From IMG/VR virus record IMGVR_UViG_3300027690_000096: a stretch of DNA of 64,000 bases; one strand, written 5' to 3'. This document shows positions 6,785 to 58,781 of the stretch, piece after piece; the stretch's first letter is position 1, and every line of letters begins with the position of its first letter. The translations under genes and the position numbers were made by a program. The stretch comes from a virus. Below the pieces are notes generated by a model that saw nothing but the letters and a program-made list of their open reading frames with translations, was not told the origin of the DNA and did not search any database.

Positions 6785-7288
6785 ATGCCTAGAAGAAAAG
6801 AAGTTGATAATAAAGCCCTGCTCAAAGATATCAAAGAAGGAATCTCTCAAGCAGATTTGTTAAAGAAATATGGCTTTAAAAGTGCAATTTCGTTAAAAAT
6901 GGCACAGCTCAAAGCTCTTGAAGAAGAACAAGGTATAATCCCAATCAAAGGAACAGGCAGATCAAGGAAATCTAAACCTATTGAATTAAATGTAAAAATC
7001 AATTCAAGAGGCTCTTTAATACTGCCAAAAGTCCTAATTGAAAGCATGGACTTCAAGCAAGGCGAAAGCTTTGAAGTAAAAAGAACTCCATCGGGTATCA
7101 TGCTGAAGTCTGTTGAAGAATCACGAACCGCTCAACAGCAGTCAGAACAAGAACCTTCAGATACTCAATCATCCGAACAAGCGTCTGAACAATCCCACCT
7201 GGGAGACCAGCCTGATAAGGCAGATAAGGCTGATAAGGTAGAAAAAGCTGAAAAGAAAGAAAGGAAAGCAAAAAAGACTGAAGATTAA
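6785..7288 (+). CDS. AbrB/MazE/SpoVT-family DNA-binding protein with N-terminal helical domain and low-complexity tail
   Basis: KINSRGSLILPKVLIESMDFKQGESFEV is a swapped-hairpin AbrB motif; AAGGAG RBS. Confidence 0.75.
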   Translation: MPRRKEVDNKALLKDIKEGISQADLLKKYGFKSAISLKMAQLKALEEEQGIIPIKGTGRSRKSKPIELNVKINSRGSLILPKVLIESMDFKQGESFEVKRTPSGIMLKSVEESRTAQQQSEQEPSDTQSSEQASEQSHLGDQPDKADKADKVEKAEKKERKAKKTED

Positions 7289-8839: not shown

Positions 8840-9769
8840 ATGCTTGATAATATTTTTTTAACTAAACATTTCGATTATTTAGAGAAAGAAGATAGAATGG
8901 CAGTCCGTTCAGACTGCTTAAAAGTTCTATCACAAATAAAAGATAATTCAATCAACCTTATCTTTGCAGACCCACCATATAACATAGGCAAGGATTTTGG
9001 TAACGTAAAGGATAAACTAGCTAAAGATGATTACCTCTCATGGTGTAAGCTATGGATAGATGAATGCTGGCGTATTTTGGCTCACGATGGAACATTCTAT
9101 TTTATGACTGCAACTCAGAATATGTCATATCTTGACGTATATGTTGATGAAAAATATAATGTTCTTTCAAGAATAGTATGGTTTTATGATAGTTCAGGTG
9201 TGCAGTCAAAGAACTATTATGGGTCATTATATGAGCCTATAATAATGCTTGTAAAAAATCCTAAAAAATACACATTCAATGCCTCTGATATTCTTATTGA
9301 GGCAAGAACTGGTGCTGTCCGAAAACTGATAGATTATAGAAAAGACCCACCTCAACCATATAATCATAAGAAAGTTCCAGGTAATGTATGGGAGTTCCCA
9401 CGTGTAAGGTATCGTATGAAAGAATATGAGAATCATCCCACACAAAAACCTTCAGCACTTCTTGAAAGGATTATACTTGCATCAAGCAATCCTTGTGATA
9501 TAGTCCTTGATCCTTTTGCTGGAACTTTCACAACAAATGAAGTTGCATATCAAAAAGGTAGAAAAACAATAGGTATAGAAATAAATGAGGATTTCTATAA
9601 GATTGGTCTACGTCGGCTTAAAATAATAAAGGAATATAATGGTGAACAGCTTGAGCGTGACCTAAGTAGGAAAACCAATAACTTATCAAAACATGTCAGA
9701 GATAACGAAGTTAACAAATGCACGGAATATAAACCACCTGTTCAAAACATACTTTTTAATCAGATATGA
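8840..9769 (+). CDS. yhdJ: Beta-class DNA adenine methyltransferase, YhdJ-like
   Basis: DPPY near N-terminus, HPTQKP, DPFAGT SAM motif at C-terminus; YEPI..VKNPKKYTFNA..I..EARTGA.RKLIDYRK resembles YhdJ. Confidence 0.88.
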   Translation: MLDNIFLTKHFDYLEKEDRMAVRSDCLKVLSQIKDNSINLIFADPPYNIGKDFGNVKDKLAKDDYLSWCKLWIDECWRILAHDGTFYFMTATQNMSYLDVYVDEKYNVLSRIVWFYDSSGVQSKNYYGSLYEPIIMLVKNPKKYTFNASDILIEARTGAVRKLIDYRKDPPQPYNHKKVPGNVWEFPRVRYRMKEYENHPTQKPSALLERIILASSNPCDIVLDPFAGTFTTNEVAYQKGRKTIGIEINEDFYKIGLRRLKIIKEYNGEQLERDLSRKTNNLSKHVRDNEVNKCTEYKPPVQNILFNQI

Positions 9770-11623: not shown

Positions 11624-12103
11624 ATGACAATGCTAAACAAAATCATCTCAGGCGGACAGACGGGAGCAGACCGAGCAGGGCTTGACATAGCCCTTGATAA
11701 AGGCATACTTCATGGTGGCTGGATTCCTAAAGGAAGAAAGACTGAAGACGGAACACTCCCAGAGCGATACCATCTGCAGGAAATGACTACAACGAGCTAT
11801 CCGAAGCGAACAGAAAAGAATATCCTTGATTCGGATGGAACCATAATCATATCGCATGGCAACCTCACAGGAGGCTCACTCCTTACTCTAAAGCTTGCAA
11901 GACAGCATAATAAACCATTCATTCACATCGACTTGACAGAAAACTCAATCACTAAATCAGCAGAACATCTCACCAGGTGGATCATAGCCAACGAAATCAA
12001 GACTCTCAACGTAGCTGGCTCAAGAGCAAGCAAAGACCATGAGATATACAACAAGACAAAAGAAGTCTTAAAGATAGCTATCGAAAGCCTCATCTATAAT
12101 TAA
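11624..12103 (+). CDS. SLOG-superfamily protein (putative molybdenum carrier/YpsA-like)
   Basis: ISGGQTGADRAGLD...GGWIPKGR.TEDG, RTEKNILDSDGT, LNVAGSR. Confidence 0.88.
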   Translation: MTMLNKIISGGQTGADRAGLDIALDKGILHGGWIPKGRKTEDGTLPERYHLQEMTTTSYPKRTEKNILDSDGTIIISHGNLTGGSLLTLKLARQHNKPFIHIDLTENSITKSAEHLTRWIIANEIKTLNVAGSRASKDHEIYNKTKEVLKIAIESLIYN

Positions 12104-14433: not shown

Positions 14434-16044
14434 ATGAAAAAACAAATACTAAAATATCTAACAAAAGAAAACCAGTATTATCCGACTCCAAAAGAGCTTA
14501 TCAATGACATACTTGCTAAGGTTGATGAATCCAATCGATATGACTCAATGCCTGAAGAGATACATTTCCTTGAACCATGCGCAGGCGACGGAGAGATATG
14601 CAGAACAGTCAGGGATTATTTCAAAGAGGAGCATAAAAGAATTGAGATTAAAATAAAATGTATCGAAATTGAGCCAACGCTAAGAAACAGCCTTACAGGT
14701 CAGGGATTCAACGTAATCTCATCCGACTTTGAAAAGTTTGACGGTAAACCCTTCTATGACTTAATCATAATGAACCCGCCATTTTCTAAAGGAGCAAGGT
14801 TTCTTCTTAAGGCTTACAGCCTCTTAACATCAGGCGGAAGACTTGTCTGCATCCTCAACGCTGAAACAATAAAAAACAAATGCACAAAAGAAAGAGAACA
14901 GCTTTCGCACTTAATAGAAAGGACAGGCGAGGTTGAATTCATCGGAAACGCTTTCCAATCAGAAGATACAGAAAGAAACACCGATACAGAGATAGCGGTT
15001 GTTTACCTGCAAAAGCCAGCCTATGAAAACGAATTTGACCCTTTCGGTGGAATAAATGACAACGTATTGACCGAAGAAGAGAAAGCCATTGACGAGCTTA
15101 AACAAAGGCTATCCAGCGAAGGCACAGAAAACAGTCAGCTCATAACATTTGATAAGGTTGAGAATGCAATCAACCTATACAGGAACTGCACAAAACAGAT
15201 ATTTAGCGGAATTGATACAATCCAGCAAATCAAGACAGGATTATCATACCTCAACAAAGAAGCAAAGGAGTTTGACATCAACCTTGAACAGTTCTTTAAG
15301 ATAATCCTTGAAAACGAGCCAGAGAAAGCCAAAGAAGAATCAATCAAAGTCTTACGAAAGATGATATGGAGCTATGTAATCAAGTTCTGCAACATGGATC
15401 AGTATCTATTCCACAGGCAAAGGCAAGACTTCTATGACAAGCTTGACAAGGGAAGCGGAACACTGCCTTTCACAAAAGATAACATCAACCAATTCTTCAG
15501 TAATCTATTCCTGCAAAAGAACGAATATTTTAAGCAAGGAATTGAAGACCTATTCAATGAGATAACCAGCTATCACAATGGCAACACTAAACATAGTGAT
15601 GGGTGGAAGACAAACAAAAACTGGAAAATCAACAAAAAGATTATAGTAAAATGGGGGTTAGTTGATTACACTGATTATAGTAAATACAGTAGATATGATT
15701 CAAAAAATAAATATGGTAAATTTGATTGTAAAGGTAATTACGACAGCAATTGGGTAGATGACCTTGATAAGATTGTCAGAAAAATCCAGCCAATAGGTTC
15801 ATCAGGATTAACAATCAAAGATGCCTTAAACAATAGATTCAAGTCTCTAGGCACTGTCTATGTTGGAGAATCTTATGACAATACCGCAGAAACGCCATAC
15901 TTCAATTTAAAGTTTTGGAAAAAAGGCACACTGCATATAGTGTTCAAAGACAACAAAATCCTTGAAGAGTTAAATCTTATAGGAGCAAAGCTAAGAAGAG
16001 ACTTAGGCTATGATGACTATGGTAAAAAGCCAGTCAAAGAATAA
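14434..16044 (+). CDS. N6-adenine methyltransferase with DUF4942-type C-terminal domain
   Basis: YYPTP, LEPCAGDG, IMNPPF (gamma class); C-terminal KNWKINKKII...FWKKGTLHI. Confidence 0.85.
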   Translation: MKKQILKYLTKENQYYPTPKELINDILAKVDESNRYDSMPEEIHFLEPCAGDGEICRTVRDYFKEEHKRIEIKIKCIEIEPTLRNSLTGQGFNVISSDFEKFDGKPFYDLIIMNPPFSKGARFLLKAYSLLTSGGRLVCILNAETIKNKCTKEREQLSHLIERTGEVEFIGNAFQSEDTERNTDTEIAVVYLQKPAYENEFDPFGGINDNVLTEEEKAIDELKQRLSSEGTENSQLITFDKVENAINLYRNCTKQIFSGIDTIQQIKTGLSYLNKEAKEFDINLEQFFKIILENEPEKAKEESIKVLRKMIWSYVIKFCNMDQYLFHRQRQDFYDKLDKGSGTLPFTKDNINQFFSNLFLQKNEYFKQGIEDLFNEITSYHNGNTKHSDGWKTNKNWKINKKIIVKWGLVDYTDYSKYSRYDSKNKYGKFDCKGNYDSNWVDDLDKIVRKIQPIGSSGLTIKDALNNRFKSLGTVYVGESYDNTAETPYFNLKFWKKGTLHIVFKDNKILEELNLIGAKLRRDLGYDDYGKKPVKE

Positions 16045-25444: not shown

Positions 25445-25930
25445 TTGGAGGAAAAAAATATGTGGAATGAACCAAGCAAAGAAAGATTAGATAAAGTGCC
25501 AAAGCTGTATGCAACAGAAGGAATACCTGTCCAGGACAAAGAGATACACCTGCATTTTTTCATAGGCGGAACAGATTATTATATATCCGAGTTTGACGGA
25601 GAGGATATCATGTTTGGGTTTTGCATCCTAAACAATGATTTAGAGATGGCTGAATGGGGATATATATCCTTAGCAGAACTCAGAGAAATAAAGGTCAAAG
25701 GGTGGCTTGAGGTTGATTGCGAACTTGAAGAGTATTGGACAGTGAAGACAGCGAAAGAAGTAAAACAGATTGCTGATGCCTGCGGATGGGTTACTGAAAC
25801 CCAGAAAGGAGATGAAGATGATTATGCAGACCAATCTTTCAATAAACATTATGGATTTAGTGGAGAAGACATTTCGGGAAGGAATACTGGAAATGGACTG
25901 TCCTGTTTGCGGAGCAATCATCATAACTGA
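25445..25930 (+). CDS. DUF2958-family protein
   Basis: PKLYATE...IHLHFFIGGTDYYISEFD...FGF.......EWGYISLAEL. Confidence 0.82.
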   Translation: MEEKNMWNEPSKERLDKVPKLYATEGIPVQDKEIHLHFFIGGTDYYISEFDGEDIMFGFCILNNDLEMAEWGYISLAELREIKVKGWLEVDCELEEYWTVKTAKEVKQIADACGWVTETQKGDEDDYADQSFNKHYGFSGEDISGRNTGNGLSCLRSNHHN

Positions 25931-26515: not shown

Positions 26516-27055
26516 GTGGCAGTCATGCAAACAATGAAACAGATGTCTTTCATCGACAGTTATGAGAAACAGTTCTGGAAGGATTTGCGGTCTGGCAAAT
26601 TCGCAAAGATGGTCAGAGAAGAATCAAGAGGGCAATACCTAAGAAGTTCAACAGAAGCTTTCAATATCCTGAAACCGATTTATGCGGATGCCATCGACAT
26701 AGAGAGGATGTATTGCATATTCATGGACACAAAGAACAATATCATTTCGATTGACAAAGTATCTCAAGGCTCATTGACTTCATCAGCAGTATATCCAAGA
26801 GAACTTATCAAACTGGCTCTCAAATACATGGCTGGCTCGATTGTAATCAGCCATAACCATCCATCAGGAGATCCGCAACCTTCACAAGAAGATAAGGAAA
26901 TCACTCTCAGGCTGGCGTTTGCTTTCAAGTCAATAGATATCAATCTGTTAGACCACATCATTGTTGGCAATACATATTACAGCTTTGCCGATAACGGTAT
27001 CATGGAAACGATAAACAGCAAATTCAGGCAGGAAACAACATTCAAATCCATATAG
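26516..27055 (+). CDS. radC: RadC-like JAB/MPN-domain protein
   Basis: E.....MDTKN.II......GSL....VYPRE......HNHPSGDPQPSQED..IT......LLDHIIVG. Confidence 0.93.
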   Translation: MAVMQTMKQMSFIDSYEKQFWKDLRSGKFAKMVREESRGQYLRSSTEAFNILKPIYADAIDIERMYCIFMDTKNNIISIDKVSQGSLTSSAVYPRELIKLALKYMAGSIVISHNHPSGDPQPSQEDKEITLRLAFAFKSIDINLLDHIIVGNTYYSFADNGIMETINSKFRQETTFKSI

Positions 27056-27789: not shown

Positions 27790-28257
27790 ATGACTTTTGT
27801 GGGTATTGTGGGAGCAAGGAAATATAAATGCAAAAATTCGGTTAAAAACCTCATTGTTTCGCTGCCAGAAGATTCAGTGATTGTAACAAGCAATTGCTCA
27901 GGGGTCTGCTCATGGTCACAAGGATTTGCCAGGGAAAGAGGTCTTGAGGTTCTTGTATATGCCCCAGACCTTGAAAACATCCGTTCAAAGTTCGATGTGG
28001 CTGATAGGTATTACATCAGAAACAAAGAGCTTGTTGAGAAGTGCGACCTGTTGCACGCATTCATCAGTAAAGCCGATGGTTACTCTGGGGGAACAAAGTT
28101 CGAAGTCGATTATGCAATCAAGATAGGTGTGCCAGTCAAGGCGCATCATGAAGAAGGCAAAAGCGAGATTTTCCAGCAGTTCAGGATTCCGTTCAAGAGC
28201 GAGGATAACCTTTTCTTCCAGAGATGGGAATCGTTCTTCACAGAAACATTTGCTTAG
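27790..28257 (+). CDS. SLOG-superfamily (DprA/SMF-like) protein
   Basis: VGIVGAR, IVTSNCSGVCSW, RNKELVEKCD.LHAF, GGT...VDYAIK.G.PV. Confidence 0.65.
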   Translation: MTFVGIVGARKYKCKNSVKNLIVSLPEDSVIVTSNCSGVCSWSQGFARERGLEVLVYAPDLENIRSKFDVADRYYIRNKELVEKCDLLHAFISKADGYSGGTKFEVDYAIKIGVPVKAHHEEGKSEIFQQFRIPFKSEDNLFFQRWESFFTETFA

Positions 28258-28940
28258 AACAGACAGCATATAACCTAAAGGAGGATGTCATGCAGACTAA
28301 ACATGTATTGAACGAGAGAGTCAATATAGAAGTCAAGGATAACGAGATTAATTCAGACTGGCATCTAAGCAGATTAGCCCATGAACTGTATTGGTGGTAT
28401 GATTTCATCAACATATTATTTTTCAAAGAAGAGCCTGTGCCTGTGCCAGTAATATCGTTTGAAAAGACCAGTGTAAAAACTCTAGGTCATTTTGTAATCG
28501 GAAAGAATGCGATAGGGCTATCAAATAACATCAACGTAAACAGGATATATCTTCACAGACCATTATGGGAAGTGATTGCTACTCTCACTCACGAGCTTTG
28601 CCATTCATGGCAACAAACATACGGAAAGCTTGAAAGCCGAAACTGGTATCATGGCAAAGAGTTCCAGCAGAAGATGCTTGAGATTGGCATTGTAACAAAC
28701 AACAAAGGACAGCACTTAGCAGTCTCGGACCCATTTGTTTACCTTCTTAGAAGGCACGGAGTCAATGTTTGCATTGAACCCAACATTGAAGGGATATTAG
28801 AGATTGACACAGAACCAAAGAAGAAAGGCAAATCCAAGCTTAAGAAATGGTCATGCGGCTGCACTAATATAAGGGTAGCAATTACCGATTTTAAAGCGAT
28901 ATGTTTGAAATGTGAGAACGAGTTCGAATTGGTCGAATGA
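28224..28940 (+). CDS. SprT-like zinc metalloprotease (likely start 28288, MQTKH)
   Basis: HELCH, HGKEF, C-terminal WSCGC.NIR...CLKC. Confidence 0.88.
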   Translation: MGIVLHRNICLEQTAYNLKEDVMQTKHVLNERVNIEVKDNEINSDWHLSRLAHELYWWYDFINILFFKEEPVPVPVISFEKTSVKTLGHFVIGKNAIGLSNNINVNRIYLHRPLWEVIATLTHELCHSWQQTYGKLESRNWYHGKEFQQKMLEIGIVTNNKGQHLAVSDPFVYLLRRHGVNVCIEPNIEGILEIDTEPKKKGKSKLKKWSCGCTNIRVAITDFKAICLKCENEFELVE

Positions 28941-53900: not shown

Positions 53901-55106
53901 TTATTTTGGATTTTTCTCTCTCTTAAGGTCTTTTATGGTTTTCTTGTTGAGCTTAATGACATATTCCTCAAGCTCTTTTTGTTTCTTAAATATATGTTTC
54001 ATCTCAGATAATCCTTTTTTTGAGTATTCCAGGTATTCAAGGCAGTCATGAGGATAGAGGCTTTTTAGTCTCTGCATGGCTTTTGCGATTGTCTGGTTGA
54101 ATGTTTGCGTGAATGAAACAATCTTTGATTCATATGATTCTATGAAATTCAATAATTCTATCATCTGCTTTTGATATTTCAGTTCTTCCTCGATGGCTTT
54201 CTGCTGCTTAGGATTATCTTTTGATTCGCTATGCCTCTTCTCAAGCTCGCTTATATCCTTTCTATGCTTTGATTTGAATATTTCAGCGTGATGTTTAAGT
54301 GTAGGCATAGCTCTCAGTAGGACGTTTTCATTCTCGTTTATCTTCTGTAAAAGCTTTGAGATTTCCAGCCCCTCTTCTTGAGTCACGCCTGAGCCTTTGC
54401 TTTTTATCAAGCTTATCAGATGTTCAAGGATATTTTCCATGTCATCAATTGTATGAATCTCAAACTTTGTCAATTTGAGGGTTTTGCCTTTCAATAATTT
54501 ATCTTCTTTTTTATCCTCATGTATTTCATGCTCAATCTCTGGCTCATCCTTGACAGGACTTTTAATATCTTTTATTTCTTTGGCAGTTTCTTTCAGATCA
54601 GGCTTAAGATGGGATATGAATGCCTTGATGAGATAATACAGCGAGATAAAAAACAGGACAGCCATTGTTAACTTTGCCAATGGAAAAACGCTTTGGAAAT
54701 CAGTCATGATATTAGGAGTCAATCGAACAAGAGAGATGTAAAACAAAACAAAACCCAGAGGTAAGGCTAACCTGGTTCTCATTCCAAAGCTTTTGTTCAA
54801 GCTAAACAAGACAAAGAAGATGATTATCAGGATAAGGACTCCACCGAACATTCCTAATCCTTCAAGCGATAGATTCAATTTTCTTATATGTATAAGATAA
54901 TAAGTGCCAATCGATAACATCAATGCAGTAGATGTTGCAAGAACTCTGAAAGCTTTCGAATCTCCAAACCTTTTCTTAAGCGCAATCGTAACAACTGCCC
55001 AAAAGAAGAAAGTCAAAAGAAAAAATAATATCCAATCCTGAAACTGATTAATCAACCTATCAGGTTTAATTTTTCGAAAAACTGATAGGATATCAAGGTC
55101 TGTCAT
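53901..55106 (-). CDS. Multi-TM protein with long coiled-coil C-terminus
   Basis: About five N-terminal TM segments; K/E-rich helical tail. Confidence 0.75.
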   Translation of the reverse strand: MTDLDILSVFRKIKPDRLINQFQDWILFFLLTFFFWAVVTIALKKRFGDSKAFRVLATSTALMLSIGTYYLIHIRKLNLSLEGLGMFGGVLILIIIFFVLFSLNKSFGMRTRLALPLGFVLFYISLVRLTPNIMTDFQSVFPLAKLTMAVLFFISLYYLIKAFISHLKPDLKETAKEIKDIKSPVKDEPEIEHEIHEDKKEDKLLKGKTLKLTKFEIHTIDDMENILEHLISLIKSKGSGVTQEEGLEISKLLQKINENENVLLRAMPTLKHHAEIFKSKHRKDISELEKRHSESKDNPKQQKAIEEELKYQKQMIELLNFIESYESKIVSFTQTFNQTIAKAMQRLKSLYPHDCLEYLEYSKKGLSEMKHIFKKQKELEEYVIKLNKKTIKDLKREKNPK

Positions 55107-55180
55107 TCAGTTACTTATTTGTATACAGATATATATATTTTATGGTTTGAAATATTTTTTTATCATAAAATTATATTTGA

Positions 55181-55471
55181 ACTCTCCGCTATAATTCCGG
55201 AGAGTAAATTATATAATAATAAATCTATTTAACGTAAGTGAACTACTACTGTCAGAATCCGGAGAGTAGTAGTTAGTTTTGTATCGACAAAACCTTTAAA
55301 CTTACTCTCCGTATTTTGACCGGAGAGTTAATTTTTAAGAGGCTAAAACTAAGAAAATACTGAACTCTCCGCTATAATTCCGGAGAGTCCAATTTCAGCT
55401 AAAAAACATACTTTTTGTATCTTTTTTACAACATATTGCAAAATAACTCTCCGTAAATATACGGAGAGTTA
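55181..55471. repeat. Array of five palindromes ACTCTCCG-N-CGGAGAGT (candidate replication origin)
   Basis: Right arms at 55198, 55260, 55321, 55381, 55462; units 1 and 4 identical; unit 2 has a degenerate left arm; AT-rich spacers. Confidence 0.9.
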
Positions 55472-55493
55472 AATAACCACTAAAAAGAGGTTA

Positions 55494-55507: not shown

Positions 55508-55790
55508 TAAGTTATGTTCAACAGATAAATAATGGTTTATACAACAATACAGATTGGAAAGAGAACGAGAGAGTTAATTAAAGAATTAAGAATAACCAAA
55601 CTTGAAACCTATGATGAGATACTACTTAGGTTGATAAAAAATTATAAAGAAAAAAAGACCGAGGTTATTAACCTCGATCCAGATCCCCTTGCCATGTCAG
55701 AACATAGCTAAGCAATTTTATCCTGCTTAGATTAGTTCTATATGCTAGGAGTATATATATTTTTTGGTTTGACGGTATGGAATTAATAAA

Positions 55791-56030
55791 ATGGAACGGA
55801 AAAACAGCGGAATATCATTTTTTTTAAATAAGAGTGTAAGGCTTATTGTTGAAGACAGCGGTAAAGTCTTTCCAAGAGATGGAATTCTTAAAGATTTTGA
55901 TGAATTAAATTATTATATCGAAATGCTACAAGGACCTAAAAAATGTATGATAATAGGATTCTTGAAAACTACTGTTAGAAGAATTGAGCCTTTGAATTAT
56001 AGTAGAGGTGATTCAAATAACCAATATTGA
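55791..56030 (+). CDS. Small Sm/LSm-like fold protein
   Basis: FLNKSVRLIV...RDGILKDFDE..YYI resembles the Sm1 motif. Confidence 0.45.
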   Translation: MERKNSGISFFLNKSVRLIVEDSGKVFPRDGILKDFDELNYYIEMLQGPKKCMIIGFLKTTVRRIEPLNYSRGDSNNQY

Positions 56031-56721
56031 AACAACTTCACAAAAGAGGATATCTTCTATATATGATTTTGTAGCAAAACTTGATGTGACAAATACTCAA
56101 AATATTAGTCTTCACTTTGAGAGAACTTTTAATGATATACTATCAATATTTTTTGATAAGTGGAAATGTAAATTAATTTATGTCTTATATAATGTTGAAA
56201 TTTCAAGTATATGGGAATTATCTAATCATTTCAACCTTTGTTATAATTATAGAAAAGATATGAATACTATATTAATGGATCTTGAAACAAAGAACATCGT
56301 TGAAGAAATTTATAGCGATACTGTTGAGTGTAAAACACTTCGTAAAGTATGGGAAATACTTCATCCTAATGGGAAGAGGACATATAGAAAAACAAAACTT
56401 TTCAAGTTATCTGATGATTTTAAATCAGTATTTGAATTATTCTTAGACGAGGTTTATTCAAAATATATTTACAGAAGTGAATATCTAAATATTGAAATAA
56501 GAAAAATATCTTTTCATAAAATCTATAATGAAATAATAGGAAAAGAGAAACAATCTTTAGTTCTTGATGAAAATTGCATAGGAAGATGCTTTAAATGTAA
56601 TCAACCTATCAGTAAAGACTCAACTGAATACATGAATATCTATGAAGGTGTAGTTCATAAGACATGCTTTAAGAACACTCCGCAAAAAGAAGCAATAACA
56701 TGGAAACAGAAACACAAATAA
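56008..56721 (+). CDS. Winged-helix plus Zn-finger protein (candidate initiator or MCM loader)
   Basis: ILMDLETKNIVEE...LFKL wHTH-like; CFKC...HKTC; overlaps the mcm start. Confidence 0.5.
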   Translation: MIQITNIETTSQKRISSIYDFVAKLDVTNTQNISLHFERTFNDILSIFFDKWKCKLIYVLYNVEISSIWELSNHFNLCYNYRKDMNTILMDLETKNIVEEIYSDTVECKTLRKVWEILHPNGKRTYRKTKLFKLSDDFKSVFELFLDEVYSKYIYRSEYLNIEIRKISFHKIYNEIIGKEKQSLVLDENCIGRCFKCNQPISKDSTEYMNIYEGVVHKTCFKNTPQKEAITWKQKHK

Positions 56722-58781
56722 CCACCTTCAGAAATATAATAGACTCATATTACTATGAATCTCTTATTGAATCTGTTAGGAATGGGAATAAATTCTTTGT
56801 GATAGATTTCCAAGATATTTCTAAGAGCAATATTGAACTTGCAGATGATTTGCTTGAAAACCCTGAAGAATGCCTTAAATCTGCAGGTATAGCAATATCT
56901 CAGTTTGACCTTCCTGTTTCACATACACCAGACATAATAATAAGAATCAAGAATCTTCCAAAAATACAAATAAAAAGAATAAGAGACCTCAGAAGCAAAC
57001 ATATTGGAAAATTTATCTGTTTAGAAGGAACTATAAGACAAAAGAGCGAGATAAGACCTCAGATAATCGCGGCAAAATTTGAATGTCCATCTTGTGGTAA
57101 CATCATACCAACTCTTCAGATTGACAGTAAATTTAAAGAACCAAATCACTGTGGTTGCGGAAGAAGAGGAAAATTTAGGATGATATCAAAAGACCTGATT
57201 GACGCTCAAAACGTAAAGCTTGAAGAAGACATTGACGCTCTTGACGGAGGAGAGCAACCAAAAAGACTTAACATATTCATGCAAGATGATTTAATCACTC
57301 CTCTGCTTGAGAAAAGAGCTTACCCAGGCTCAAAAATAAAGGTTAACGGGTATCTAAAAGAAACTCCAGTAATCCTAAAAAACGGTGGAAAAAGCACAAG
57401 ATTAGAATGGATATTTGAAGCCAATTATTTTGAATCAATTAATGAGGATTTTGGTGAAGTCAAGATAAGCGATAATGAAAAGATGGAAATCGAAATTATG
57501 TCTCAGGAAGATGATATAATCCATCGCTTAGTAAAATCAATCGCTCCTTCAATATATGGGCATGAAAGAATCAAAGAAGCCCTTCTTATTCAGCTTGTCG
57601 GAGGAGTTAAGAAATACCAGCAAGACGGAATGAAGATTAGAGGGGATATGCATGTCCTTCTTATAGGCGACCCAGGTTCTGGAAAATCTCAATTATTAAA
57701 GAGAATAAACAAAATCGCCCCAAAATCAAGATTTATAAGCGGTAAAGGTGCATCAGCCGCAGGACTAACGGCATCCGTAGTAAGAGATGATTTTATGGGT
57801 GGCTGGGCGCTTGAAGCTGGGGCATTAGTTCTAGCAAACAAAGGACTAATCTGTATTGACGAGCTTGACAAGATGTCAAAAGATGACACAAGCGCAATGC
57901 ACGAGGCCCTTGAAGGACAGCTTGTCACAATCTCAAAAGCTAATATTCAAGCAACTTTGAAATGCGAAACAACAGTCCTTGCAGCAGCCAACCCTAAGTT
58001 TGGTAAATTTGACCTTCACGCAAAAACAATAGCAGACCAGTTTGAACTGCCTTCGACATTGATAAATAGGTTTGACTTGATATTTCCTATAAAGGATATA
58101 CCAGACAACAAAAAAGATGAGAAATTAGCTAAATTCCTGATTAATGTCCACATAAAATCTAATAATCATAAAACTAATAATCAAAATACAGAGACCTCAA
58201 ATAATGTAAATAAGCAAATCATAGATAATAATAATATAATTGACACTGATATGCTTCGCAAATATATTGCCTATGTAAGAACATTAACACCTATAATAAC
58301 TGAAGAAGCAAGTAAGCAATTCGTTCAATATTATCTCAAGATGAGACAAAGCGGTTTAAAGGAAGGTTCAGTTAAATCTATACCTATATCAGCAAGACAG
58401 CTCGAAGGGCTTATAAGAATGTCAGAAGCATTTGCAAAACTAAGAATGCGAGATAAGGTAACAATTGAAGATGCGAATCAGGCAATAAACCTTCTTGATT
58501 TTTGTTTAAATCAAATAGCTTTTGATGATCAGACTGGAACGATTGACATAGACAGGATAACAACAGGCATAACAGCAAGCTCAAGAAACAATATTTCTAT
58601 CTTGAAAGATATAATTAATACGCTTGAAGATAAGTTTGGGAAATGTATTCCTATAAGCGAGATATCACTTGTTGCATCAGATAGAGGAATATCAGAAGAT
58701 AATCTTGAACCTACTCTTGATAAACTAAAAAAGGCAGGTGATGTATTCGAACCGAGAAGAGGATTTATTTCAAAATTTTGA
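56700..58781 (+). CDS. mcm: Archaeal MCM replicative helicase
   Basis: GDPGSGKS Walker A, IDELDKM Walker B, AAANPK.G.F, LINRFD and ISARQLE arginine motifs, Zn finger, C-terminal wHTH. Confidence 0.98.
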   Translation: METETQITTFRNIIDSYYYESLIESVRNGNKFFVIDFQDISKSNIELADDLLENPEECLKSAGIAISQFDLPVSHTPDIIIRIKNLPKIQIKRIRDLRSKHIGKFICLEGTIRQKSEIRPQIIAAKFECPSCGNIIPTLQIDSKFKEPNHCGCGRRGKFRMISKDLIDAQNVKLEEDIDALDGGEQPKRLNIFMQDDLITPLLEKRAYPGSKIKVNGYLKETPVILKNGGKSTRLEWIFEANYFESINEDFGEVKISDNEKMEIEIMSQEDDIIHRLVKSIAPSIYGHERIKEALLIQLVGGVKKYQQDGMKIRGDMHVLLIGDPGSGKSQLLKRINKIAPKSRFISGKGASAAGLTASVVRDDFMGGWALEAGALVLANKGLICIDELDKMSKDDTSAMHEALEGQLVTISKANIQATLKCETTVLAAANPKFGKFDLHAKTIADQFELPSTLINRFDLIFPIKDIPDNKKDEKLAKFLINVHIKSNNHKTNNQNTETSNNVNKQIIDNNNIIDTDMLRKYIAYVRTLTPIITEEASKQFVQYYLKMRQSGLKEGSVKSIPISARQLEGLIRMSEAFAKLRMRDKVTIEDANQAINLLDFCLNQIAFDDQTGTIDIDRITTGITASSRNNISILKDIINTLEDKFGKCIPISEISLVASDRGISEDNLEPTLDKLKKAGDVFEPRRGFISKF

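Follow-up and report, generated by a model that had tools for sequence, protein, structure and literature searches.

Palindromic sites that change in concert upstream of a winged-helix and MCM helicase operon: a possible replication origin and control region in a probable archaeal mobile element

The MCM helicase operon in IMG/VR virus record IMGVR_UViG_3300027690_000096 is preceded by an array of palindromic sites whose arms differ between lineages, and these differences are symmetric and shared by all units of a lineage. The window analyzed here is a 64,000-nt stretch of this record. Within it the array occupies positions 55181-55469 and consists, by sequence reading and repeat search, of four perfect palindromes ACTCTCCG-N8/9-CGGAGAGT and one half-site. 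Its five units, spaced at 60-81 bp, lie 0.5 kb 5′ of the gene for a 237-aa protein that we call WZ (gene 3 of the operon, 56008-56721, plus strand) and 1.2 kb 5′ of mcm. We propose that the array is a docking region read by a two-fold symmetric protein of the element itself, most likely WZ. The explanation that we prefer, with confidence a little short of even, is that the sites are palindromic iterons for WZ and form an origin and control region independent of element-encoded Orc1/Cdc6. The closest named homologues of the MCM come from Woesearchaeota and Nanoarchaeota (55-64 % identity), and the record probably represents a mobile element of a DPANN (Woesearchaeota-like) archaeon. DPANN archaea are mostly uncultured and their mobile elements are known from sequence only. 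To our knowledge, the choice of start site by MCM-encoding archaeal plasmids, viruses and integrated elements is largely unknown, and we know of only one Orc1/Cdc6-independent archaeal origin that has been dissected, WhiP/oriC3.

The full units, which belong to neither strand, are U1 (55181-55205, centre CTATAATTC), U3 (55304-55328, centre TATTTTGAC), U4 (55364-55388), which repeats U1 with its centre included, and U5 (55446-55469), with an 8-nt centre TAAATATA. U2 (55241-55276, likewise without strand) holds the right arm CGGAGAGT at 55260-55267 within an outer palindrome AACTACTAC...GTAGTAGTT. The initial annotation, made by a model from the letters of the window, had described five units with conserved arms and centres of 9, 4, 9, 9 and 8 nt. 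The four perfect palindromes bear this out with centres of 9, 9, 9 and 8 nt, but the 4-nt centre of U2 does not stand: the left arm proposed for it, ACTGTCAG, matches at 6 of 8 positions and is not conserved in relatives, and U2 is therefore a half-site. The right-arm spacings of 62, 61, 60 and 81 bp proved exact in the repeat search. Ten copies of the 8-mer of the arms are found in 64 kb, nine of them in the array, against an expectation of 0.55, and no shuffle reaches ten. Allowing up to three mismatches, the full palindrome has no other occurrence in the 64-kb window, of which the array is the sole recurrent palindrome cluster. As in an iteron origin, at least three regularly spaced copies of one short site adjoin a putative initiator gene. 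The classic iteron form of direct repeats with a monomeric initiator was not found, the units being palindromes and U2 alone a half-site.

The spacers of the array are 72-78 % AT compared to 64 % for the window, so that their earlier description as very AT-rich was overstated. The TA-rich tract between U1 and U2 (55206-55240, no strand) is a candidate DNA-unwinding element. Of all 40-bp duplexes in the array, the one from 55205 onwards is the least stable and belongs to the top 0.3 % of the 64-kb window, and the segment 55129-55170 ranks about tenth least stable; neither tract is unique in the window. The AT-richness of the unwinding elements suggested to flank the sites is only moderate.

The array is present in register in ten syntenic metagenome relatives (L083-L085, L087-L091, L116 and L132), always upstream of the same operon of a small regulator, an ~80-aa protein, an ~240-aa protein and MCM, and the arrangement upstream of mcm is therefore not peculiar to the window. 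Three WZ homologues have 56-58 % identity, and the nearest MCM matches lead to further syntenic contigs. Six loci (L083, L084, L085, L088, L089 and L090) match the window in layout and have all five units in register; L091 ends within the array, so that U4 and U5 alone are seen; and L086, on a 36-kb Joint Genome Institute (JGI) sediment contig, is a near-identical copy of the locus. A unit orthologous to U1 is found in L083-L090, L096 and L132. The family alignment shows that the U3 centre type ATTTT(G/A)A is kept in relatives, and the 8-nt centre of U5 is kept in all close ones. U2 consists of the right arm only in every relative, and always of the arm variant of that lineage.

Every arm in the close relatives reads ACTCTACG/CGTAGAGT, compared to ACTCTCCG/CGGAGAGT in the window. 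Between the window and five close relatives, arm position 6 is different in every arm compared (9 of 9) and the remaining positions agree at 62-63 of 63, with unit centres 69-80 % and spacers 70-76 % identical. DNA identity is 71-78 % over the whole intergenic region and 66-73 % in the flanking genes. Three distant WZ loci, L096, L093 and L132, were included with their upstream regions. The arms are ACTCTCCT/AGGAGAGT in L096 (WZ 29 % identical), which has three units and a half-site unit, and ACTCTACA/TGTAGAGT in L093 (WZ 32 % identical). In L132 (WZ 26 % identical) they read AG(C/T)AGACC/GGTC(A/T)(A/T)CT, and a half-site unit stands between two full units at spacings of 57 and 59 bp. The family thus holds five arm variants, with right arms CGGAGAGT, CGTAGAGT, AGGAGAGT, TGTAGAGT and GGTCAACT. 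Over 21 aligned units the arms change symmetrically and in all units of a lineage, 97.9 % of cells being symmetric; two-sided changes occur at 4 of 8 arm positions and one-sided changes at none, values that 0 of 500 shuffles reach. Arm divergence grows with WZ divergence, from one change at 56-58 % WZ identity to five changes at about 25 %.

Symmetric change alone would be expected both from base pairing and from recognition of duplex DNA by a protein with two-fold symmetry. We favor the protein because all units share one arm sequence and change it together, which structure alone does not require, because no one-sided (G-U type) wobble intermediates are seen, and because the stems are only 8 bp. 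Furthermore, U2 is conserved and co-varies without a pairing partner; a hairpin being impossible there, its constraint points to protein recognition of duplex DNA. Unit spacing is mostly about 60 bp (57-62 bp), with 57/59 and 57/60 bp in distant relatives and 117/48 bp in L096, and strict helical same-face phasing is therefore not a feature of the family. The phasing at roughly 6 and 8 helical turns that was claimed for the window fits only a repeat of about 10.2 bp per turn and fails across the family.

The number of units varies naturally. The MCM proteins of L087 and L088, from different samples, are identical, yet L087 has two units (L087:4369-4473 versus L088:4475-4759). This suggests that recombination between the identical U1 and U4 deleted U2 and U3, with assembly collapse a less likely cause. 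L087 also carries a tyrosine integrase and L132 sits inside a 541-kb contig, which marks the element type as integrative, in some relatives at least.

Which product of the operon reads the sites can be approached through co-inheritance. Gene 1 (55532-55711, plus strand) encodes 59 aa of the DUF7557 type (ribbon-helix-helix-like); its Pfam match at E 4.8e-5 is just below the cutoff, and the orthologues in L090 and L096 are above it. It is a swappable cassette, with counterparts at L083:2639-2779, L084:432-629, L093:299-442 and L132:9446-9595 and conserved flanking DNA in all. A DUF7557-type gene 1 accompanies three arm variants, ACTCTCCG in the window, ACTCTACG in L090 and ACTCTCCT in L096. In L083-L089, where the arms are ACTCTACG, gene 1 is an unrelated small basic protein that is AbrB/SpoVT-like by eye and has no Pfam match. 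L093 and L132 both have a CopG-type ribbon-helix-helix protein with near-identical beta-strands (KISITVD and KVSITVD), yet their arms differ. Because the types of gene 1 are swapped regardless of arm variant, gene 1 is not the arm reader. Gene 2 (55791-56030, plus strand), a 79-aa protein with no family match, overlaps gene 3. It exists as one allele in the window, L084, L088, L090 and L096 and as another in L083 (at L083:2944-3177), L085, L089 and L091, both ending in an RGG motif, and is likewise independent of the arms: the window and L084 share an allele and have different arms. Two divergent gene 2 alleles among close relatives point to recombination within the operon.

WZ behaves differently in that it stays with both the array and the helicase throughout. 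A profile search gathered 51 cluster representatives, and in all 11 contexts examined WZ lies directly 5′ of mcm and is preceded by a gene of about 80-100 aa. In the window, genes 2 and 3 and mcm overlap one another successively. The AlphaFold2 model of WZ reaches a predicted local distance difference test (pLDDT) score of 91 from a 47-sequence alignment, compared to 47 from four sequences. In it, a winged helix (about residues 30-152) is followed by a long helix (156-188) and, at the C-terminus, by a zinc ribbon in which Cys194, Cys197 and Cys220 are invariant. Alignment of residues 30-152 with VIA-align gave CzrA (Z 8.5), a MarR-operator complex (Z 8.1) and an AspA-DNA complex (Z 6.8); Foldseek matches are weak (E 0.04-0.5) and fall in the same fold class, with which an Atlas search agrees. 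The model thus assigns residues 30-152 to an ArsR/MarR-like winged helix, in line with the winged helix-turn-helix first read from the sequence. Winged helices of this class usually bind palindromes as dimers. No match to WZ was found in Pfam (E 0.01), PHROG or phage and plasmid databases, nor does its sequence place it in the HTH_5 or MarR families, and WZ is a separate, new protein family. WZ is the only recognizable sequence-specific DNA-binding candidate of the operon that is inherited with the array.

The array occupies a 425-bp gap between two divergent genes (53901-55106, minus strand, and 55532-55711, plus strand) and is followed by a TATA promoter, as the initial annotation had noted. 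The leftward gene encodes 401 aa without convincing family match. Its putative TATA box (55130-55138, minus strand), 24-32 bp from the start codon at 55106, is kept in all close relatives. The box TTTATATATA of the putative rightward promoter P1 (55500-55509, plus strand), 23-32 bp before the ATG at 55532, is also conserved. The palindromes are centred about 45-60 bp upstream of each TATA box without overlapping either. Between U5 and the rightward box lies a second palindrome, TAACC-N10-GGTTA (55474-55493, no strand), in a block AACCACT...GGTTAG that is kept in L083-L090 and L096 irrespective of arm variant; it is a candidate operator of another regulator, possibly the gene 1 product.

We propose the following sequence of events. 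WZ dimers, as the symmetry of the sites suggests, would occupy U1, U3, U4 and U5, with one subunit on the U2 half-site. The resulting nucleoprotein complex would stand beside easily melted TA-rich DNA and would recruit or position the MCM translated from the same mRNA. Replication would then start here, in an origin that needs no element-encoded Orc1/Cdc6. The initial annotation's call of Orc independence agrees with the lack of any Orc1/Cdc6 match among window open reading frames (ORFs) of at least 150 aa, a set in which Rep, primase, polymerase, ParA/ParB and integrase matches are equally lacking. Both TATA boxes have these sites 45-60 bp upstream, and for this reason the complex probably has a second role in tuning the promoters of the leftward gene and of the replication operon.

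We suggest more tentatively still that WZ founds a new archaeal initiator family, non-AAA+ and of winged-helix/zinc-ribbon type, which would read palindromic iterons and load or position a self-encoded MCM without Orc1/Cdc6; the single-base arm changes (C/G, A/T and others) would then sort DPANN mobile elements into groups of incompatibility or specificity. Arrays of initiator or regulator sites beside a replication gene are as such already known. New are the WZ family, its strict coupling to MCM in DPANN-like elements, iterons that are palindromic rather than direct, and natural co-varying specificities; we found no literature description of an array-WZ-MCM module. The locus offers a compact and testable pair, a 25-bp palindrome and a 237-aa protein, for which the natural arm variants predict cross-binding outcomes. 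If WZ recruits MCM, the pair would provide a minimal system for reconstituting helicase loading in vitro and an origin marker for such elements in metagenomes.

Several observations weigh against this proposal. The idea that the sites are iterons for the 56008-56721 product passes the comparative test, in that the palindrome differs between lineages and stays symmetric, but the predicted recognition helix of WZ shows no clean residue-to-base correlation with arm position 6. The window WZ does have a unique two-residue insertion just before that helix. L089 and L090 differ from L083 in the recognition-helix region, yet share ACTCTACG arms. MCM is co-inherited with the array as well, and the sites may be read by a host factor. 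Two units seem to suffice in L087. The AT-rich tracts of the array are not the least stable of the window, and the shift of the GC and AT skews at the array is no more than the change in gene orientation would produce. A position between divergent promoters is equally typical of an operator region, and classic iterons are direct repeats, not palindromes.

Comparison with characterized systems places the locus between several of them. In Sulfolobus, firing of the origin oriC3 depends not on Orc1/Cdc6 but on WhiP, a winged-helix protein encoded beside it; the helicase is MCM, and the origin is believed to go back to an extrachromosomal element that was captured (PMC3607249). The proposed role would be similar here, an archaeal origin specified by a neighboring winged-helix protein and not by Orc1/Cdc6. 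However, WhiP is described as a Cdt1-like tandem winged-helix protein acting on AT-rich direct repeats, whereas WZ combines one winged helix with a long helix and a zinc ribbon, and its sites are GC-containing palindromes. Neither a Cdt1 nor a WhiP entry is among the listed fold matches of WZ, which lacks the tandem winged helix. Archaeal origins of the origin recognition box (ORB) or mini-ORB type resemble the locus as intergenic AT-rich regions with repeated dyad elements adjoining a replication gene. They differ in having an adjacent orc1/cdc6, which is missing among window ORFs of at least 150 aa, and in that the ORB is widely conserved while the motif found here varies between close relatives.

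Iteron plasmids, whose Rep proteins are of the winged-helix kind and have their repeated sites beside rep, and the lambda origin share with the array several regularly spaced copies of one site next to AT-rich DNA and an initiator gene, which is putative in our case. In iteron plasmid replicons and in the lambda O system, site and initiator diversify together into specificity groups, and dimers of lambda O on dyad-symmetric iterons recruit the helicase. The direct repeats of iteron plasmids are bound by Rep monomers, unlike the palindromes described here, which are closer to the dyad iterons of the lambda type. Both known systems employ the bacterial DnaB helicase in place of a self-encoded MCM, and WZ, with no Pfam or PHROG match, has no sequence similarity to the Rep and O families. 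On pNOB8 the dimer of the winged-helix protein AspA recognizes a 23-bp palindrome that precedes its own operon, whose genes overlap (PMC5120986). The AspA-ParB-ParA system thus shares with ours a winged-helix protein, a palindrome that lies shortly before the overlapping genes of the operon and, as proposed here, recruitment of the machinery encoded downstream. It differs in that this machinery is ParB/ParA and not MCM, and in that one nucleation site with spreading takes the place of five discrete sites.

The explanation that competes most seriously, less probable than the one we prefer but still strong, is that the array is a purely transcriptional set of operators or upstream activator sites. 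WZ or another regulator would auto-regulate the operon, and with it the divergent 401-aa gene, in the manner of a switch or immunity region, and replication would start elsewhere or through host Orc1/Cdc6. Divergent TATA promoters do flank the array on both sides, winged helices of the ArsR/MarR type typically belong to transcription factors, and the rightward operon opens, like the early operons of phages, with the gene of a small DNA-binding protein that can be swapped. The retention of only two units in L087 would also suit operators, and lineage-specific site changes are typical of immunity specificities too. However, archaeal repressors usually act at TATA boxes, transcription factor B recognition elements (BRE) and start sites, and these sites, 45-60 bp upstream, lie off all of them. 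Five sites over 290 bp, with unit-specific conserved centres and spacers, exceed what simple autoregulation needs; the motif is in no other promoter of the 64 kb; and WZ stands beside MCM in 11 of 11 contexts. Should the array nonetheless prove to be of operators only, it would still show cleanly how a regulator and its binding sites evolve together in a mobile element of archaea.

It is improbable that the array is instead a centromere-like partition site, on which WZ would act as a winged-helix adaptor in a higher-order complex like that of AspA on pNOB8 or TubR on tubC. AspA provides a precedent (PMC5120986) and its DNA complex is among the fold matches of WZ, and multiple regularly spaced sites are typical of centromeres. 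Yet no ParA, ParB, ParM or TubZ-like gene is present in the operon or among window ORFs of at least 150 aa, the gene after WZ encodes a replicative helicase and not a segregation motor, and the element is integrative in at least some relatives. The sole sign of partition genes is a faint ParB_N match downstream in L095.

Even less probable is a reader from the host, its Orc1/Cdc6 or a transcription factor. An element without Orc1/Cdc6 of its own could borrow that of its host, and the arm variants could follow host lineages; however, elements with about 75 % DNA identity elsewhere have different arms, and a dedicated DNA-binding protein is translationally coupled to MCM. The motif ACTCTCCG...CGGAGAGT presumably also lacks the ORB-like G-string and the mini-ORB, as far as can be judged by eye.

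Least of all do we expect the array to act as structured nucleic acid, whether as cruciforms, as single-strand hairpins or as a transcribed array processed into crRNA-like units: all changes do keep the arms complementary, the single strand folds far better than shuffles (z = -10.9) and transcription from the TATA-like motif at 55130-55150 could in principle run rightward across the array, but low folding energy is automatic for any palindrome array, the co-varying U2 half-site has nothing to pair with, and the spacers are kept between relatives, unlike those of clustered regularly interspaced short palindromic repeats (CRISPR). A CRISPR or mini-CRISPR array was considered separately and rejected, given that the repeat centres differ by unit, the spacers are 70-76 % identical between relatives, Rfam has no match and no Cas-like Pfam match appeared among the ORFs scanned. 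The cruciform and crRNA-like alternatives raised at the outset are accordingly disfavored.

Searches with the motif itself returned mainly unrelated sequences. The exact palindrome pattern gave 82 single scattered matches in IMG/VR and no array, which we regard as chance matches. A pattern of two units, in which arm positions 6 and 8 were left as N, matched 29 metagenome loci (L097-L125), of which only L116 is in the family. The others are tandem ACTCTCCC-N9-GGGAGAGT repeats with a 30-32 bp period on contigs of 40-47 % GC, mostly from microbial mats; this is an unrelated satellite that shares the motif core and has eukaryote-type neighbors (eIF-1A, split IF-2/EF-Tu-like GTPase ORFs, and zf-MYND with ankyrin). 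Scans of viral contigs with the MCM, two distant WZ proteins and the two-unit pattern found nothing.

Two decayed copies of the module, L126 and L128, in a metagenome-assembled genome (MAG) also carry the array in register. With L129 and L130 they belong to OY759599.1, labeled as a Desulfatiglandales MAG chromosome, where they lie near both record ends. MCM is shortened to about 255 aa in both copies, and in L128 a DDE transposase stands between U1 and U2 with an IS21 (IstB) element alongside. The occurrence of an archaeal-type element within a bacterial chromosome record suggests chimeric assembly or mis-binning, and the same question applies to L096/L127, labeled Kosmotogaceae.

Two further signals accompany the promoters and gene 1. 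A 21-bp promoter-like motif, TATATATATTTT(A/T)TGGTTTGA, occurs in two near-identical copies of the same orientation, one at the leftward promoter (55130-55150) and the other before gene 2 (55752-55772). This may mean that the left TATA box is active towards the array as well, or else that an antisense RNA across a hairpin region starts from the second copy. The hairpin (55660-55676), CGAGG TTATTAA CCTCG, has a 5-bp stem and a 7-nt loop, extendable in the window to a 7-bp stem with a 3-nt loop. It is followed by ATCC(A)GATCCC and AGTTCTA boxes, and the whole block (55660-55745) is conserved throughout the family with compensatory changes in the stem. The hairpin overlaps the 3′ end of gene 1 in the window but follows the stop codon in L083, so the constraint is on DNA or RNA and not on protein; one possibility is that the block serves copy control as an antisense or leader RNA. 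In pMV158 the layout is origin, promoter, copG (encoding a ribbon-helix-helix protein), antisense-RNA region and rep. The locus described here follows the same order, with a repeat array, a promoter, a small ribbon-helix-helix gene, a conserved hairpin region and the putative initiator gene; pMV158 differs as a bacterial rolling-circle plasmid with a nicking Rep, and an antisense RNA is a possibility here.

Downstream of WZ and overlapping it, mcm (56700-58781, plus strand) encodes a helicase of 693 aa with the full domain set, matching Pfam MCM at 1.3e-89 together with MCM_OB, MCM_lid and MCM_WH_arc. No Rfam hit and no tRNA were found in the window. Its remaining genes include DNA methylases, a HerA/TraG-like ATPase, SprT, RadC, cpYpsA and many unknowns. 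The methylase genes are at 8840-9769 and 14434-16044. Accessory genes of the conjugative or integrative type, at 6785-7288, 11624-12103, 25445-25930, 26516-27055 and 28224-28940, encode a MazE-like domain protein, a cpYpsA SLOG protein, DUF2958, RadC and an SprT-like protein.

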